From the NCBI GenBank assembly GCA_964416195.1, contig CAYQDB010000003.1, forward strand, positions 8,555 to 72,554: a DNA stretch of 64,000 nt. Reading direction: 5' to 3'. Position numbers and translations under genes: made by a program. Positions 2,697-25,402 of the stretch are shown piece after piece (positions within the stretch are counted from its first letter, which is position 1; every line of letters starts with the position of its first letter). The DNA is from an uncultured Ignavibacteriales bacterium (GTDB taxonomy: Bacteria; Zixibacteria; MSB-5A5; GN15; FEB-12). The notes below the pieces were generated by a model. The model made no database searches, was not told the DNA's origin, and saw nothing but the letters and a program-made list of their open reading frames with translations.

Positions 2697-3329
2697 TCAA
2701 CTGTTGTGAGTCCTATGATAGTCAAGGTAGGCTTTCCCTTTTTCAGTCAGATCGTAATAGGTATGGTTACGGTGCTTGATCCACTTGTTGTCGACAACTC
2801 CCTTGCGGTACTGCACTATTCGCGGCTCGACGCGCTGTAAAAGTCCCAGGTCTCGCAGCCGCTTATGCCGCTCGAACGCATCCTGTTTGGGAATAGCCAG
2901 CGCTTTTGCAACCATCAGGGAATAGTCAATGCCGTAGTCAAGATGATGCCTTAGCACCGCAAAGTCATCAACCTCCAATTCGTTGTAATCCTGCCCTGGG
3001 GTGAAACCTGCATCCTCCAGTATGTCATCCCATGACAATGCAACGAGCCTGGTTGGTTCGGCCTTTTTGAGACTGGCGCAGTCGTGATGGTGCACCTTGA
3101 GGTAATTGTCGTGGCTGTAGTAGCCGACAATCTTATCTTCAAGTGACGGAGAGCAACACTTCGCAAGGATATATTTTTCTTTGAGTTTTATTTCATTGGG
3201 CATGATTGTAATATACATCGGCTTGAAGAAAAAGGCAGCATGTTTTGCATTCACGGTGGCATCAGGCAGGTCGAGGTTGTCCCAAACCCTGTCTGCCGCG
3301 CACGGAAAGTCTTGTAGGTCAAGCTCCAA
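2697..3329 (-). CDS. hypothetical protein with RelA/SpoT zinc-finger (CC) domain-like motif and C-terminal winged-helix-like region
   Basis: AKCCSPSLEDKIVGYYSHDNYLKVHHHDC resembles the AKCC.P.PGD.IVG....G..VH..DC motif of the RelA/SpoT ZFD. The C-terminal part (RLRDLGLLQRV...YYDLTEKG) looks wHTH-like. Start is uncertain. Confidence 0.45.
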   Translation of the reverse strand: MELDLQDFPCAADRVWDNLDLPDATVNAKHAAFFFKPMYITIMPNEIKLKEKYILAKCCSPSLEDKIVGYYSHDNYLKVHHHDCASLKKAEPTRLVALSWDDILEDAGFTPGQDYNELEVDDFAVLRHHLDYGIDYSLMVAKALAIPKQDAFERHKRLRDLGLLQRVEPRIVQYRKGVVDNKWIKHRNHTYYDLTEKGKAYLDYHRTHNS

Positions 3330-6329: not shown

Positions 6330-6625
6330 TGTCATTGCGAGCAACAGCGTGGCAATCTCGGTTATTGAATGCAAACAAGATAGCCATATCACTTGGCTCC
6401 TCGCTATGACGCTTGTCATGTTTTTCAACAAGCACATTTGCCTGGTGCCCGGGTGCCCCATAGCTTGCTATGGGAAGCCTTAATCCAAGCACCCTTTTTC
6501 ATCCTTCGACTCCGCTCAGGATGACTATGTACGAGAGATAGGAGTGGCTTGCCACCGTCATGGTGAGCCGTCCATCCGCCTTTGGCGGACTGTCGGGCGA
6601 AGTCGAACAATGACATGTTTGTGAC
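6330..6625. repeat. cluster of dispersed hairpin repeats (cattgcgag...gcaatc type and TCGACTCCGCTC-core type)
   Basis: gtcattgcgagcaacagcgtggcaatc; tcatcct-tcgactccgctc-aggatga (7-bp stem); gtcatggtgagc...gaagtcgaacaatgac. The track ORFs here (6241..6492, 6425..6667) are built from these repeats. Confidence 0.6.
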
Positions 6626-16339: not shown

Positions 16340-16585
16340 AAGGCATGTCACCCTGAGCGGAGTCGAAGGACCCTGTCATCCTGCCTGACGGAGTGTCATG
16401 GTTCGACTCCGCTCACCATGACTATAAGAGAAAGAGTAGGTCGGGTTTCTCGGTCGTCCGCCTGAGGCGAGCTCCCTCGGAACGCCGACCTACGGGTCTT
16501 CCGTTTATATAGTCAAGCACACGTACTGTCTCCAGAAAGGTAGGTCGGGTTCCGATCCGCCTATTGCGGGGAGAAACCCGACATA
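16340..16585. repeat. cluster of dispersed hairpin repeats
   Basis: gagcggagtcga core; gtcatggt-tcgactccgctc-accatgac (8-bp stem); gtaggtcgg...ccgacctac (9-bp stem); gtcgggtt...aacccgac. Confidence 0.6.
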
Positions 16586-17949: not shown

Positions 17950-18258
17950 ATGTTGTTTCAGTTAGCAATGTTTCCCACCAGTAAGGGGACGGTGTCGGTC
18001 TCGGCGGATGTCGCCAAAGTAATCGACATTATTGACAAGTCCGGCCTGCCCTACAAGCTGAGTGCCATGTCAACCGTAATCGAGGGCGACTGGGAGCCGG
18101 TGATGAAGGTTATCAATAAGGCGCGCCTGACGCTGCGCAAGAGGCACAACCGCATTTACATTGTGCTGACGATTGATGACCGCAAAGGAGCCAGAAACCG
18201 CCTGACCGGTAAGGTCAAGTCGATTGAAAACAAACTCAAGCGAGAGGTGAAAAAGTAA
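17950..18258 (+). CDS. MTH1187/YkoF-family (DUF77) thiamine-binding-like protein
   Basis: ATG at 17950, MLFQLAMFPTSKG...STVIEGDW, about 100 aa as typical of the family. Confidence 0.65.
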   Translation: MLFQLAMFPTSKGTVSVSADVAKVIDIIDKSGLPYKLSAMSTVIEGDWEPVMKVINKARLTLRKRHNRIYIVLTIDDRKGARNRLTGKVKSIENKLKREVKK

Positions 18259-18264
18259 TGGAAA

Positions 18265-18383
18265 TTGCTTTTTCTGTCGGTTCTTGCACGCCAAAGGCGG
18301 GTGTGAACCGACAGTTTGCCAGTTGGTCGTCAGGTCACATCCGCTTTCGCGGACAAGACCTGACGAAACTCAGGGAAAAAAGG
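18265..18383. repeat. 119-bp double-hairpin insertion between DUF77 gene and cutA, flanked by 30-nt junction duplication
   Basis: Flanks 18235-18264 and 18384-18413 match 28/30. Inside: ctgtcggttc...gaaccgacag (10-bp stem) and tcgtcaggtc...gacctgacga (10-bp stem with an inner tccgc/gcgga hairpin). Confidence 0.65.
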
Positions 18384-18406
18384 CTCAAGCGAGAGGTGAG
18401 GAAGTA

Positions 18407-18727
18407 ATGGAAACAGTGCGAGTAGTTTTTATCAGTATCCCGCGCGACGAGGCCAACAAACTGGCGCGCACCCTGGTGGAGAAACGTCTGGCCGCCTGTA
18501 TCAACATTGTACCCAAGATCGAGTCCTATTTCCGGTGGGTTAACAAAGTGGAGCATGACGAGGAGGCGCTTTTGATTGCCAAAACCACCCAGCAACGCAT
18601 CGACGAATTGATGCTCTATGTGCAAGCCAACCACCCCTACGAATTCCCCGAGGTAATATCATTGCCTTTATCCGAAGGCCTCCCCGACTACGTCGCCTGG
18701 GTGAAGAAGGAGACAAAACAGGGGTAG
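18407..18727 (+). CDS. cutA: divalent-cation tolerance protein CutA
   Basis: ATG at 18407. LAACINIVP.IESYFRW...EEALLIAKT...HPYEFPEVISLP matches the CutA1 family. Confidence 0.85.
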   Translation: METVRVVFISIPRDEANKLARTLVEKRLAACINIVPKIESYFRWVNKVEHDEEALLIAKTTQQRIDELMLYVQANHPYEFPEVISLPLSEGLPDYVAWVKKETKQG

Positions 18728-19498: not shown

Positions 19499-19499
19499 T

Positions 19500-19965
19500 T
19501 GTTACACTTCGACTCCGAAACTGTGTCATAAATCGCAATTCACGCTTTCTCATGGTGGCGTCAGGCGTCTCTGCCTGACGCTTGCACGACGTATTGGTGT
19601 ATTGCGTATTCACTTGTGGCTGTCGGGCAGAGACACCCGACAGCACCTTGTAAGCTCAGGACAGGCAGGGCTTTTGACCTACGGGGATTGTTGGGGCAGA
19701 TGTGGACATCTGCCACCCACGATACTCGCCTTTGGCGTACTGCCCACAGTACACGGATGTCATTCCCGCGAAAGCGGGAATCCAGGTACTTAACGTTGAG
19801 AAAAGAGACACGAATGGATTCCTGCTTCCGCAGGAATGACGGGCGAGTAGCCTTATTGAGTCAGGTGCAAAAGGAACCTGAGCTACTAGGGCAGATGTGG
19901 ACATCTGCCGCATACAAGCAAGAAGGGTATGACAACATAGGCGAATTGGCGAGCCGAACACGGAA
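19500..19965. repeat. intergenic array of at least six unrelated perfect hairpins (REP/MITE-like)
   Basis: Hairpins at 19558-19581 (9 bp), 19620-19643 (8 bp), 19695-19714 and 19890-19909 (identical ggcagatgtggacatctgcc), 19762-19781 (attcccgc gaaa gcgggaat) and 19818-19837 (attcctgc ttcc gcaggaat). Confidence 0.7.
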
Positions 19966-19966
19966 A

Positions 19967-20029
19967 ATGAAATACTCCAAGTGCGGACATGAGGAAGATA
20001 AGGTCATAGGCAGCAAAAGTGGATATTGA
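19967..20029 (+). pseudogene. decayed duplicate of the nrdR 5' end (20-codon remnant ORF)
   Basis: 19967-20005 matches nrdR 21115-21153 at 35/39 nt. Remnant MKYSKCGHEEDKVIGSKSGY versus NrdR MKCPKCGHEEDKVVDSRPS. The first zinc-ribbon Cys is lost. Confidence 0.65.
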
Positions 20030-20972
20030 AATCCTGGGAACGGAGTCTCTGGGGGTCAGGGGGCTTTCGTGTTTTGTCAGAGCCGGAAATCAAAGAATAC
20101 TGATCGATCCGGGTATTGCCTTAGGTTACATCCGCCACGGGTTGCTGCCGCACCCTTTTCAGGTAGCCGTTGACGAAAGGATACAGAAGAAAATCGTGCA
20201 GAGATGGTCTGACGCTACGGATATAGTCATCAGCCATTTTCATGGAGACCATGTTCCCCTTGCGGATGCCAACCCGTATCAGTTCAATATCAGGAAGGTA
20301 ACCGGATTGAATCCGCACGTCAGGATATGGACAAGGAGTCTGTCGCATCTCTCAATGGTGCAAAAACGAAGAGCGGAGTCCCTTTCCACAGTATTACGCA
20401 CTGATCTGTTACCGGCGGAAGGGACCACACAGGGAATAATGACTTTTTCCGGGCAGGTATGTCATGGCGAAAAAAGCAGCCATCTGGGAACTGTAATAAT
20501 GACCAGGATTGAGGAAGATGGTGTGTTTGTGCACGCTTCTGATATTCAGCTTCTCAACGACGAAGCGATTTCCATAATACTGTCCTGGAAACCTGATATT
20601 GTATTCGCTGCCGGACCGCCTCTCTACCTGTACCACAAGGTTTTCAAAAGCAAAATGAGAATAGCCTGGCATAATGCCAGAATTCTTTCAGAGCGGGTTG
20701 GCATTTTAATTCTTGATCATCACTTGATGAGGAGTTATGAAGGGATTACATGGCTGAAGCGTCTATCGGTGGAGACAGGGAACAAGGTTATCTGCGGAGC
20801 GGACTTCATGGGGAAGCCGCGGATGTTGCTCGAAGCCAGGCGCAGGGACCTGTACAAGGATATGCCTGTCCCGTCCGGCTGGCATGAAGCCTATGGCAGG
20901 GGTGAGGTAAGCACTGATGCTTATTGGAGGTCAGCAAAGAGACTCTACAAGGAGATGAGGCTAAGCGACTAA
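20019..20972 (+). CDS. MBL-fold metallo-hydrolase, archaeal UPF0282-like
   Basis: SHFHGDH motif. The N-terminus LGTESLGVRGLSCFV....RILIDPGIALG..R.GLLPHP recalls the UPF0282 family. GTG start overlaps the nrdR remnant ORF. Confidence 0.65.
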   Translation: MDIEILGTESLGVRGLSCFVRAGNQRILIDPGIALGYIRHGLLPHPFQVAVDERIQKKIVQRWSDATDIVISHFHGDHVPLADANPYQFNIRKVTGLNPHVRIWTRSLSHLSMVQKRRAESLSTVLRTDLLPAEGTTQGIMTFSGQVCHGEKSSHLGTVIMTRIEEDGVFVHASDIQLLNDEAISIILSWKPDIVFAAGPPLYLYHKVFKSKMRIAWHNARILSERVGILILDHHLMRSYEGITWLKRLSVETGNKVICGADFMGKPRMLLEARRRDLYKDMPVPSGWHEAYGRGEVSTDAYWRSAKRLYKEMRLSD

Positions 20973-21114
20973 GGAAGTAGCGTAGGTCGAAGCCCCGTGG
21001 TTTCGACAAAGATATGAGACTTTGACGTGTGACCTACATGAATAAAGAGATTACCCACAGCAAAGCTGTGGGGTACCTCTGGTGTGTGAACGAACAATCA
21101 TGATTGGTTACTGA

Positions 21115-21567
21115 ATGAAATGCCCTAAGTGTGGACATGAGGAAGATAAGGTCGTGGATAGCAGGCCGTCACAGGATGGCCGGGCGGTGCGCCGTCGCCG
21201 TGAATGCCTGAAGTGCCACGAACGCTTCACGACATACGAGTATGTTGAGCACGGCACATTAACCGTCCTCAAGTCCGACGGCCGTAGGGAGCCGTTTGAC
21301 CGCAATAAAATCCTGACCGGCATCAAGCTGGCCTGCAACAAACGCCCGGTGACCGGCCAGCAGATGCAGTCAATGCTGGACAGTATCGAGGCCGAGCTCA
21401 GCGCCCGTTTTCGCACTGACGTCACCAGCAAGGAGATCGGTGAGGTGGTTATGCAGAAACTACGCGAGGTGGACGAGATCGCCTATGTCCGCTTTGCGTC
21501 GGTATACCGCCGTTTCCAGGATGCGGCTGAGTTCCTTGAGGAGATCAAGAAGCTGCTCGACAAGTAA
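21115..21567 (+). CDS. nrdR: transcriptional repressor NrdR
   Basis: MKCPKCGHEEDKVVDSR...RRRRECLKCHERFTTYE zinc ribbon plus ATP-cone. Confidence 0.95.
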   Translation: MKCPKCGHEEDKVVDSRPSQDGRAVRRRRECLKCHERFTTYEYVEHGTLTVLKSDGRREPFDRNKILTGIKLACNKRPVTGQQMQSMLDSIEAELSARFRTDVTSKEIGEVVMQKLREVDEIAYVRFASVYRRFQDAAEFLEEIKKLLDK

Positions 21568-21609: not shown

Positions 21610-21690
21610 CACTATTTCTTTGTTGTCATGGTGAGCGGAGTTGAACTATGAACGTTGCCCCTCGACTCCGCTCGGGGTGACGGTATCGTG
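21610..21690. repeat. hairpin repeats of the TCGACTCCGCTC-core family
   Basis: gtcatggtgagcggagttgaac and cccctcgactccgctcggggtgac. nrdR is also flanked by CCCACAGC-loop-GCTGTGGG hairpins at 21054-21072 and 21580-21597. Confidence 0.55.
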
Positions 21691-22564: not shown

Positions 22565-22584
22565 GCATCAGGTAATATTGGATA

Positions 22585-22630
22585 GCGGGCGTAATTCAGT
22601 GGTAGAATGCAAGCTTCCCAAGCTTGACGC
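22585..22630 (+). pseudogene. truncated tRNA-Gly (nt 1-46 only); left direct repeat of the islet
   Basis: 46/46 identical to 25313-25358. The T arm and 3' acceptor strand are absent. Confidence 0.85.
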
Positions 22631-25191: not shown

Positions 25192-25312
25192 ACACGCCTG
25201 TGCAACTTGACAGAGACGGCTTTGTGTATTTTTTTGTATATAGAGACATTTTGAGACGTCAAGTCTTGGAGATGAACAGTATCTCGAAGATGACGTTTCT
25301 TCTTGGAGACAA

Positions 25313-25384
25313 GCGGGCGTAATTCAGTGGTAGAATGCAAGCTTCCCAAGCTTGACGCCGTGGGTTCGAGTCCCATCGCCCGCT
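25313..25384 (+). tRNA. tRNA-Gly (anticodon CCC)
   Basis: 72-nt cloverleaf drawn by hand: acceptor gcgggcg/cgcccgc, D arm attc-agtggta-gaat, anticodon arm caagc-ttCCCaa-gcttg, T arm gtggg-ttcgagt-cccat. No encoded CCA. A T-run follows. Confidence 0.9.
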
Positions 25385-25402
25385 TTTTTTAATGGATGCG
25401 AC

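Follow-up and report, generated by a model that had tools for sequence, protein, structure and literature searches.

How does a segment of stable secondary structure come to lie between two genes that overlap by a single base in most relatives, and leave both gene ends intact? The question is posed by a junction in a 64,000-nucleotide (nt) stretch of contig CAYQDB010000003.1 (assembly GCA_964416195.1, positions 8,555 to 72,554 of the forward strand) from an uncultured bacterium of the Zixibacteria lineage. We refer to this whole stretch as the window and number positions from its first base. A PF01910 gene (Thiamine_BP, formerly DUF77) is followed here by cutA (PF03091), and the end of the one and the start of the other are present twice, on either side of two hairpins. 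Our explanation, which we hold with considerable confidence even with its inferred steps included, is that a REPIN (a doublet of repetitive extragenic palindromic (REP) sequences forming hairpins) of a family with a GTT tag occupies a former one-base overlap and is bracketed by 39-nt copies of the junction.

The duplicated gene junction

The features that make up the junction are:
17950 to 18258, plus strand: PF01910 gene, 102 aa, E = 5e-25
18226 to 18264, plus strand: junction copy 1, with the C-terminal codons of the upstream gene, the GAGAGGTGA ribosome-binding region, the TAA/ATG overlap and GAAA
18249 to 18274, plus strand: 11-bp hairpin (-9.5 kcal/mol) in which the stop/ATG region of copy 1 is paired with the T-rich left end of the insert; lineage-specific
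18375 to 18413, plus strand: junction copy 2, with a non-coding relic of the upstream tail and stop, the working ribosome-binding region and the cutA ATG
18407 to 18727, plus strand: cutA, 106 aa, E = 4e-34

A preliminary description of the locus had noted that 18235-18264 recurs at 18384-18413 with 28 of 30 positions matching, and the repeat is found exactly there. Extended without gaps it reaches 39 nt (18226-18264 versus 18375-18413, 87% identity, spacing 149). Copy 1 takes in the last 10 codons and the TAA (18256-18258) of the PF01910 gene, and this TAA overlaps an ATG at 18258; in copy 2 the TAA at 18405-18407 overlaps the cutA ATG at 18407. The earlier reading of copy 1 as the stop of the DUF77 gene fused to an ATG, and of copy 2 as the source of the real cutA start, is confirmed. 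In comparable loci a flanking repeat scoring 20 or more is met by chance at 0.4% of positions; the repeat in the window scores 26.5.

The region 18150-18480 is identical in three independent assemblies that span the junction (two from JGI, one from Logan). Two further Logan contigs begin within the insert, one of them identical and the other distinguished, in its first ~158 bases, by 4 mismatches and a gap. Because independent assemblies agree and a relative at ~90% identity carries the same insert, the duplicated junction with its insert is not an assembly artefact.

The surrounding operon, glyA-DUF77-cutA-(TPR)-nrdR, is conserved. Among 31 Zixibacteria relatives in which cutA lies next to the DUF77 gene, 25 have a one-base stop/start overlap (TAATG or TGA-type), three have a 4-base ATGA overlap or no gap, and three have a spacer, the gap being zero or negative in 28 of the 31. 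This agrees with the proposal in the preliminary description that the ancestral genes were coupled through a TAATG overlap. Comparison of orthologues, which it had suggested, shows that relatives carry the form of junction copy 1 as a single copy and lack the insert segment; a tandem junction without the element occurs in none of the 31.

A sister lineage at ~90% DNA identity (loci L123 and L154) has the same REPIN at the same place, flanked by a repeat identical at 37 of 38 positions. Because the REPIN is shared in this way, we conclude that the insertion is older than the split between the two lineages. The near-identity of the sister's flanking repeat likewise leads us to conclude that the duplication was perfect or nearly so at the outset, 38-39 nt long, and that 18265-18374 is the insert proper. 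In the window lineage copy 1 later gained two AGG-to-AAA (Arg-to-Lys) changes, which also created the 11-bp hairpin listed above.

Other relatives show different insertions near this junction. L123 (reverse complement, ~2980-3100) and L007 (4307-4461) have in common a second insertion, ten codons into cutA, built of GGCAGATGT..ACATCTGCC and ATTCCTGCGAAAGCAGGAAT repeats (other REP types). It is bordered by a diverged duplicate of the ribosome-binding region, ATG and initial codons, which brings the junction copies in L123 to three. L007 has this second insertion and lacks the double-hairpin REPIN, which suggests gain and loss at the same site, possibly via the direct repeats. Unrelated hairpin-rich spacers follow the DUF77 stop in L013 (4310-4440) and L039 (4319 onward), with no recognisable junction duplication in either; L013 has a new AAGGAG ribosome-binding site ahead of cutA, and in L039 cutA has been lost from the position after the DUF77 gene.

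A REPIN of a dispersed repeat family

The inserted segment and related sequence nearby comprise:
18265 to 18374: inserted REPIN, 110 nt, composed of TTGCTTTTT, REP copy 1, a 12-nt spacer, inverted REP copy 2 and AACTCAGG
18268 to 18316, plus strand: REP copy 1, with 10-bp outer stem CTGTCGGTTC, TTG/TGT internal loop and inner stem
18325 to 18372, minus strand: REP copy 2, inverted, with outer stem TCGTCAGGTC, inner stem TCCGC and the GTT tag intact on the minus strand
19552 to 19649: weak truncated inverted pair, outer-stem cores GCGTCAGGC and GCTGTCGGG without inner stem, E = 0.02-0.03

Perfect 10-bp stems lie at 18274-18314 and 18327-18366, each with a nested inner stem. The two stems had been recognised in the preliminary description, which placed a nested hairpin in the second only and gave the insert as 119 bp; both hairpins are nested, and the insert measures 110 nt. 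Hairpin 1 aligned with the reverse complement of hairpin 2 scores 18 (shuffles, 6.0 +/- 1.35). The aligned forms are CTGTCGGTTC-TTG-CACGCC-AAA-GGCGGG-TGT-GAACCGACAG and TCGTCAGGTC-TTG-TCCGC-GAAA-GCGGA-TGT-GACCTGACGA; their internal loops are alike and their stem differences compensate each other. The two hairpins are inverted copies of one ~48-nt structured repeat.

This repeat is dispersed. A scan of a metagenome collection with a pattern fixing only the loop-proximal bases matched 114 metagenome stretches, with the consensus tTtt.t-GTT-CTGTCAGGTC-TTG-CCCGCC-loop-GGCGGG-TGT-GACCTGACAG. The unpaired GTT, which the pattern does not demand, is conserved at 1.5-1.7 bits, and there is no conservation among copies beyond the GTT tag or downstream. 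Across 84 aligned copies pairing holds in 95.5% of cells, versus only 27-44% in slid registers, and double changes occupy 110 cells, versus 35.6 +/- 4.2 in shuffles, a number reached by none of 500. In all there are 184 non-overlapping hits and 146 clusters across the 114 metagenome loci and the window. The repeat stands at more than 115 distinct sites in metagenome contigs of Zixibacteria type. Inverted doublets with heads outward predominate: a partner 10-67 nt distant accompanies most copies, and the '+-' orientation accounts for 28 of the 38 neighbouring pairs.

Within the window a covariance model built from the alignment, R1, finds exactly two full copies, REP copy 1 with 59.0 bits (E = 2.4e-16; hairpin -24.5 kcal/mol) and REP copy 2 with 64.7 bits (E = 3.5e-18; hairpin -25.6 kcal/mol). 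The tag of copy 1 is mutated from GTT to TTT in the window and is GTT in L123. Searches of the window by blastn-short, stem pattern and covariance model returned nothing beyond these two REPs and the weak pair at 19552-19649, which could be a family member, either a decayed REPIN or a variant one.

The RNA of 18226-18420 folds at -75.9 kcal/mol (z = -6.7), and none of 200 shuffles is as stable. Such a fold could belong to a locally evolved regulatory RNA, or the open reading frame (ORF) at 18258-18407, which gene finders call and which is open in two lineages, could be a genuine small-protein gene; in either case the segment would not be mobile DNA. We consider this extremely improbable. The same hairpin is found at more than 115 unrelated sites, there is no Rfam or Pfam match, the peptide is translated REP sequence whose differences from the sister lineage are mostly amino-acid-changing, and relatives lack the whole segment. 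Dispersal largely refutes such a reading. Nor does the insert resemble an intrinsic terminator, a role that the preliminary description had raised when proposing an RNA fold: the bases after the hairpins are TTTGCC and AAACTC, with no U-tract, and no terminator-like site was found on either strand of 18265-18374.

ORFs near the repeats were clustered for recurrent neighbours. The clusters yielded a small protein with conserved HUH and Y..NPV..GLV..W.WSS motifs, which matches Pfam Y1_Tnp and, with NCBIfam NF047646 (REP-associated tyrosine transposase, RAYT; cut-off 80), reaches 93.2 and 89.9 bits. Its sole match in the PDB is 4ER8, the E. coli TnpA-REP (E = 2.5e-7). RAYT genes adjoin REPs in at least seven loci and are bracketed by REP(+)...REP(-) in L089, L054, L104 and L129, the defining arrangement of REP/RAYT systems (PMC2817692, PMC3116915); these bracketed RAYTs are only 32-42% identical to the RAYT of L124 used as query. 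The clustering found no other recurrent transposase family beside the repeats.

Based on the inverted, covarying doublets and the bracketing of RAYT genes that score above the NF047646 cut-off, the insert is a REPIN, and its REP family, which carries an unpaired GTT tag, is new. The preliminary description had supposed a REP-like mobile hairpin element and called for a search for further copies; a unit recurring at more than 115 sites as covarying inverted doublets that flank RAYT genes bears this out. Its alternative wording, a miniature inverted-repeat transposable element (MITE), would hold if a different transposase making long variable duplications had moved the unit and the RAYT association were incidental. 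Direct repeats of 8-514 bp do arise with IS1549 and IS1634, the mechanism being unknown (PMC2266710), and the whole insert is an imperfect inverted repeat with T-rich outer ends. We judge this improbable, however, given that RAYTs are bracketed head-out in at least four loci despite their low identity to the L124 protein, that no other transposase family recurs beside the repeats, and that no terminal inverted repeats are conserved beyond the GTT tag.

Several further classes of element were considered and rejected. The family tag is GTT, not GTAG, the stem is bipartite and the CGTC/TGTC motif is paired inside it; in the CGTC-tagged REP superfamily, which is without RAYT association (PMC3733652), the motif would be unpaired. 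A classical MITE of a DDE transposon would have conserved terminal inverted repeats and a short target duplication of constant length; here conservation stops at the GTT tag, and the flanking repeats vary from 14 to 51 nt. An integron attC site (RYYYAAC ... GTTRRRY around a bulged stem) has the tags in the reverse of the order seen here, GTT...AAC. Clustered regularly interspaced short palindromic repeats (CRISPR) are separated by spacers of ~30-40 nt, the criterion used; these repeats are 110 nt apart and made of the host's own gene junction. Rfam 15 gave nothing at gathering score, and a permissive scan gave chance-level matches only (mir-2 at 23 bits, gathering score 45.5). Simple tandem duplication followed by divergence would leave similarity between the insert and its neighbours; the insert scores 9 against the cutA 5' end (shuffled 8.6) and 10 against the DUF77 3' end (shuffled 9.1).

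Target duplications and relay reading frames

The 160 nt on each side of REP clusters were compared, with random positions in the same loci as the control; this within-locus control replaced a less strict cross-locus one, and flanking repeats made of other repeat modules were left out of the list of target duplications. Among 115 de-duplicated clusters, 10 have a flanking repeat scoring 14 or more (0.92 expected) and 8 have one scoring 20 or more (0.46 expected), an approximately 10-fold enrichment around REP clusters. In the clean cases the target is unique and only 1-7 nt separate the copies from the element; they comprise the window and L123 (39 nt), L145 (51 nt), L134 (24 nt), L087 (17 nt), L130 (14 nt) and L058 (14 nt).

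L145 carries the same stem pair as the window REPIN, between two VWA-domain genes resembling batA and batB. Two copies of the junction surround the REPIN (a 49/51-nt repeat), and in the empty loci L159 (97% protein identity), L161 and L162 the sequence CTGCCGTAG-gagagaggtgtaggataact-ATGCGTTTTGCTGAGCCGATAC occurs once. This is a second verified filled/empty pair, with a 51-nt duplication. The remark in the preliminary description that the duplication far exceeds the target-site duplications of classical transposons therefore applies to 39 nt here and to 51 nt at the independent L145. Inspection by eye of the boundaries of these two verified duplications revealed no shared motif or microhomology. 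At this same batA/batB-like junction, L160 (1309-1501, 94% identity) holds a different REP type, TTGTCGGGTT ... AACCCGACA, with its own, more diverged junction duplication.

That full-length repeats adjoin the element directly makes it most probable that insertion itself produced the duplication. The order of events might instead have been a 39-nt tandem duplication by slippage, with the REPIN inserting later between the copies and duplicating nothing. An in-frame repeat of 13 codons would be harmless, short tandem duplications are common, and the duplication-free chemistry expected of RAYT/IS200-type enzymes (PMC2817692) would be retained; REPIN clusters in Pseudomonas are, moreover, tandem repeats that take in flanking sequence (PMC3116915). 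Two separate steps are nevertheless very unlikely. In both events for which an empty allele is known, the element is placed precisely between complete copies, to within 2-7 nt, which by chance would occur at ~1/39 x 1/51; none of the 31 relatives has a tandem junction lacking the element; and the same geometry is seen with other REP types in L123/L007 and L160.

Homologous recombination could also generate long direct repeats, either by Campbell-type integration of a circle carrying the junction or by a larger tandem duplication followed by deletion up to a downstream REPIN. The window does contain two other long repeats that would fit homology capture (at the nrdR start and at tRNA-Gly). The repeats studied here, however, are locus-specific and lie at unrelated junctions (DUF77/cutA, batA/batB), so that a circle could come only from the locus itself, and duplication plus deletion would need two precise events at each of several sites. 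We regard both routes as very unlikely.

We return to duplication during insertion. In this scheme a REPIN inserting into the overlapping junction would copy 39 nt and rebuild both gene ends, copy 1 retaining the last codons and stop of the upstream gene and copy 2 the ribosome-binding region and start of cutA. The strands might be cut with a variable stagger of tens of bases and then filled in; alternatively, a nascent strand might copy a REPIN and re-anneal upstream of its point of departure (template switching). Both routes would fit the variable length of the duplications.

Regeneration of the junction may also bear on translation. The old cutA ATG in copy 1 opens a frame that runs across the insert:
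18258 to 18407, plus strand: relay ORF, 49 codons, from the old cutA ATG in copy 1 to the duplicated TAA that overlaps the real cutA ATG

This frame is also open in the ~90% relative L123. In all five duplications that contain a start codon the frame opened by the ATG runs the full length of the insert and terminates close to the real start:
Window and first event of L123: 49 codons, stop to real ATG -1 nt (overlap)
L145: 57 codons, stop to real ATG 20 nt
L130: 57 codons, stop to real ATG 3 nt
L123, second event: 29 codons, stop to real ATG 27 nt
L160: 57 codons, stop to real ATG 2 nt

With shuffled inserts the probability of an open frame is 0.09-0.21 per event. One frame alone can relay in four of the five events, and it is always that of the ATG (product 0.012); in the window a second frame of the insert is open as well. 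The statement in the preliminary description that the copy-1 ATG is no longer a gene start is not established, as this ATG begins a 49-codon ORF annotated by gene callers. A real 49-aa protein was rejected on the basis of the lack of a Pfam match, the second open frame and the mostly amino-acid-changing substitutions relative to L123.

The ATG at 18258 probably still initiates translation of the relay ORF, and we infer that the ORF preserves translational coupling. Ribosomes on it would melt the hairpins and pass coupling on to cutA. A survival filter may then operate, such that an insertion in a tight junction persists only if both gene ends are rebuilt and translation is relayed through the hairpins. 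The hairpins would be transcribed within the operon and, because they lack a U-tract, would act as an RNA barrier or a modulator of translation rather than as a terminator. REP copy 1 starts 15 nt past the upstream stop codon, close enough for the stalling of terminating ribosomes that REPs cause in E. coli. REPs whose distance to the stop codon is below 16 nt reduce translation of the upstream gene in E. coli (as cited in PMC12306157), and a similar effect on the upstream gene is possible at this locus.

Extending this to the lineage as a whole, we put forward only tentatively that its REPs and REPINs insert by copying 14-51 nt of target and colonise overlapping junctions, the survivors having relay ORFs that begin at the start codon. 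A number of observations weigh against our interpretation of the locus or against its extension. The tag is GTT rather than the canonical GTAG, and sequence outside the tag is unconserved between copies and does not define the ends of the mobile unit. The 64-kb window holds a single full REPIN and no RAYT gene, the cognate RAYT being known from related contigs only. IS200/IS605-type transposition, the model proposed for REPINs, gives no sizeable target duplication (PMC2817692), and relative to empty alleles we find 39 nt (window, L123) and 51 nt (L145). Clean duplication events are few. Some 90% of the REP clusters examined are without a detectable flanking repeat, so long duplications may be exceptional, or else they may decay; the high-scoring repeats at L047, L118, L110 and L075 involve other repeat modules and not a unique target. 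Finally, the relay ORFs of the window and L123 differ mostly by amino-acid-changing substitutions and one stem pair is broken in L123, from which neither the relay peptide nor a perfect stem appears to be clearly under selection.

Neighbouring repeats and comparison with known systems

The window contains other repeats and apparent captures. A 50-nt copy (84%) of the nrdR start (ATG and 16 codons) stands at 19966-20015, matching 21114-21163, with 20016-21113 inserted between the two. It directly precedes a metallo-beta-lactamase (MBL)-fold gene (20019-20972); the real nrdR start is at 21115. A TGA overlapping the GTG start region of the MBL-fold gene closes the nrdR-derived leader of 20 codons. 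This gene is in the operon in none of ~30 relatives. As the identity of its homologues falls from 91% to at most 73%, with archaea among those at the lower level, horizontal acquisition is probable. Contigs L163 and L164 of the sister lineage have the same leader and MBL-fold gene in other contexts, beside an IS3-like ORF. Next to the MBL-fold gene module there is a palindrome with the classical GTAG tag, GTAGGTCGAAgCCCcgtGGTTTCGAC, in the window (20983-21037), in L163 (~745) and in L164 (~311). With this palindrome added, at least four different REP-like families coexist in the lineage.

Several hairpin repeat types fill the TPR-nrdR spacer (19499-19965), which is 468 nt long here and ~30-45 nt in relatives. 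They include GGGCAGATGTGGACATCTGCC twice (19694, 19889), ATTCCCGCGAAAGCGGGAAT with an inverted partner (19762-19837) and the truncated pair at 19552-19649. A dispersed palindromic repeat, GTCACCCTGAGCGGAGTCGAAGGA and its complement, occupies intergenic positions at 6499-6528, 16347-16427 and 21620-21684, including sites immediately ahead of glyA and downstream of nrdR. An exact repeat of the first 47 nt of tRNA-Gly(CCC) stands at 22584-22630, 2.7 kb upstream of the intact gene (25312-25385). Between the two lie minus-strand genes for four small hypothetical proteins, with none for an integrase; this segment may be left over from an integrated element bearing the 5' part of the tRNA.

The spread of REPs and REPINs has posed an open question ever since they were first discovered. 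The REPIN literature cited here describes no insertion event, its one statement on the point being that the parent IS200/IS605 family produces no sizeable duplication, and long target duplications are undescribed in PMC3116915, PMC3733652, PMC3686654, PMC12306157 and bioRxiv 10.1101/2021.07.10.451892. The two clean filled/empty pairs (39 and 51 nt), together with the further candidates, provide concrete, testable evidence on the insertion step. They suggest how palindromic repeats enter operons of overlapping genes while both genes survive, and how short new ORFs, already equipped with start and stop signals, may originate as a by-product. Long direct repeats would permit precise loss by recombination, so that such insertions could modulate expression within an operon reversibly.

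Among known systems the closest parallels are the REPINs of P. fluorescens SBW25 and the REPs and bacterial interspersed mosaic elements (BIMEs) of E. coli with TnpA-REP (4ER8). These are likewise short palindromes with a conserved unpaired end tag, arranged as head-out inverted doublets with a variable spacer, bracketing RAYT genes and occurring between the genes of operons (PMC3116915, PMC2817692). The Zixibacteria family differs in having GTT in place of GTAG, a bipartite stem and a conserved TTG/TGT internal loop; its hosts belong to a phylum unmentioned in the cited REP literature, and some of its insertions have 14-51-nt target duplications, which the cited REPIN literature does not describe. 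The IS200/IS605 'peel and paste' elements are similar in that a relative of the Y1 HUH transposase is involved and hairpin ends are recognised as structure. They leave no sizeable duplication (PMC2817692), in contrast to the 39-nt and 51-nt duplications seen here against empty alleles.

Long variable direct repeats of unknown mechanism are also made on insertion by IS1549 and IS1634 (IS1634 family; PMC2266710), although these are DDE-type insertion sequences of 1.5-2 kb and no such transposase is associated with the repeats described here. In the tandem REPIN clusters of P. fluorescens the flank is duplicated along with the REPIN (PMC3116915, Fig. S7 legend). There the whole flank-REPIN-flank unit is repeated, whereas here a single REPIN lies between two copies of the target.

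Rickettsia palindromic elements (RPEs) are reportedly tolerated in translated sequence with the frame kept open (Ogata et al. 2000). RPEs become part of the host protein, unlike the repeat described here, which forms a separate short ORF between regenerated gene ends. RPE-6 and RPE-4 have been classed as CGTC repeats (PMC3733652). The REP-mediated down-regulation of translation in E. coli, as presented in PMC12306157, resembles the present arrangement in the position of REP copy 1, 15 nt after a stop codon. The difference is that here an ATG overlaps the stop and could restart translation through the REP. The element is thus of a known kind (REPIN/RAYT) and belongs to a new family, and its insertion signature, a long variable duplication combined with relay ORFs, is new to the descriptions of that kind.

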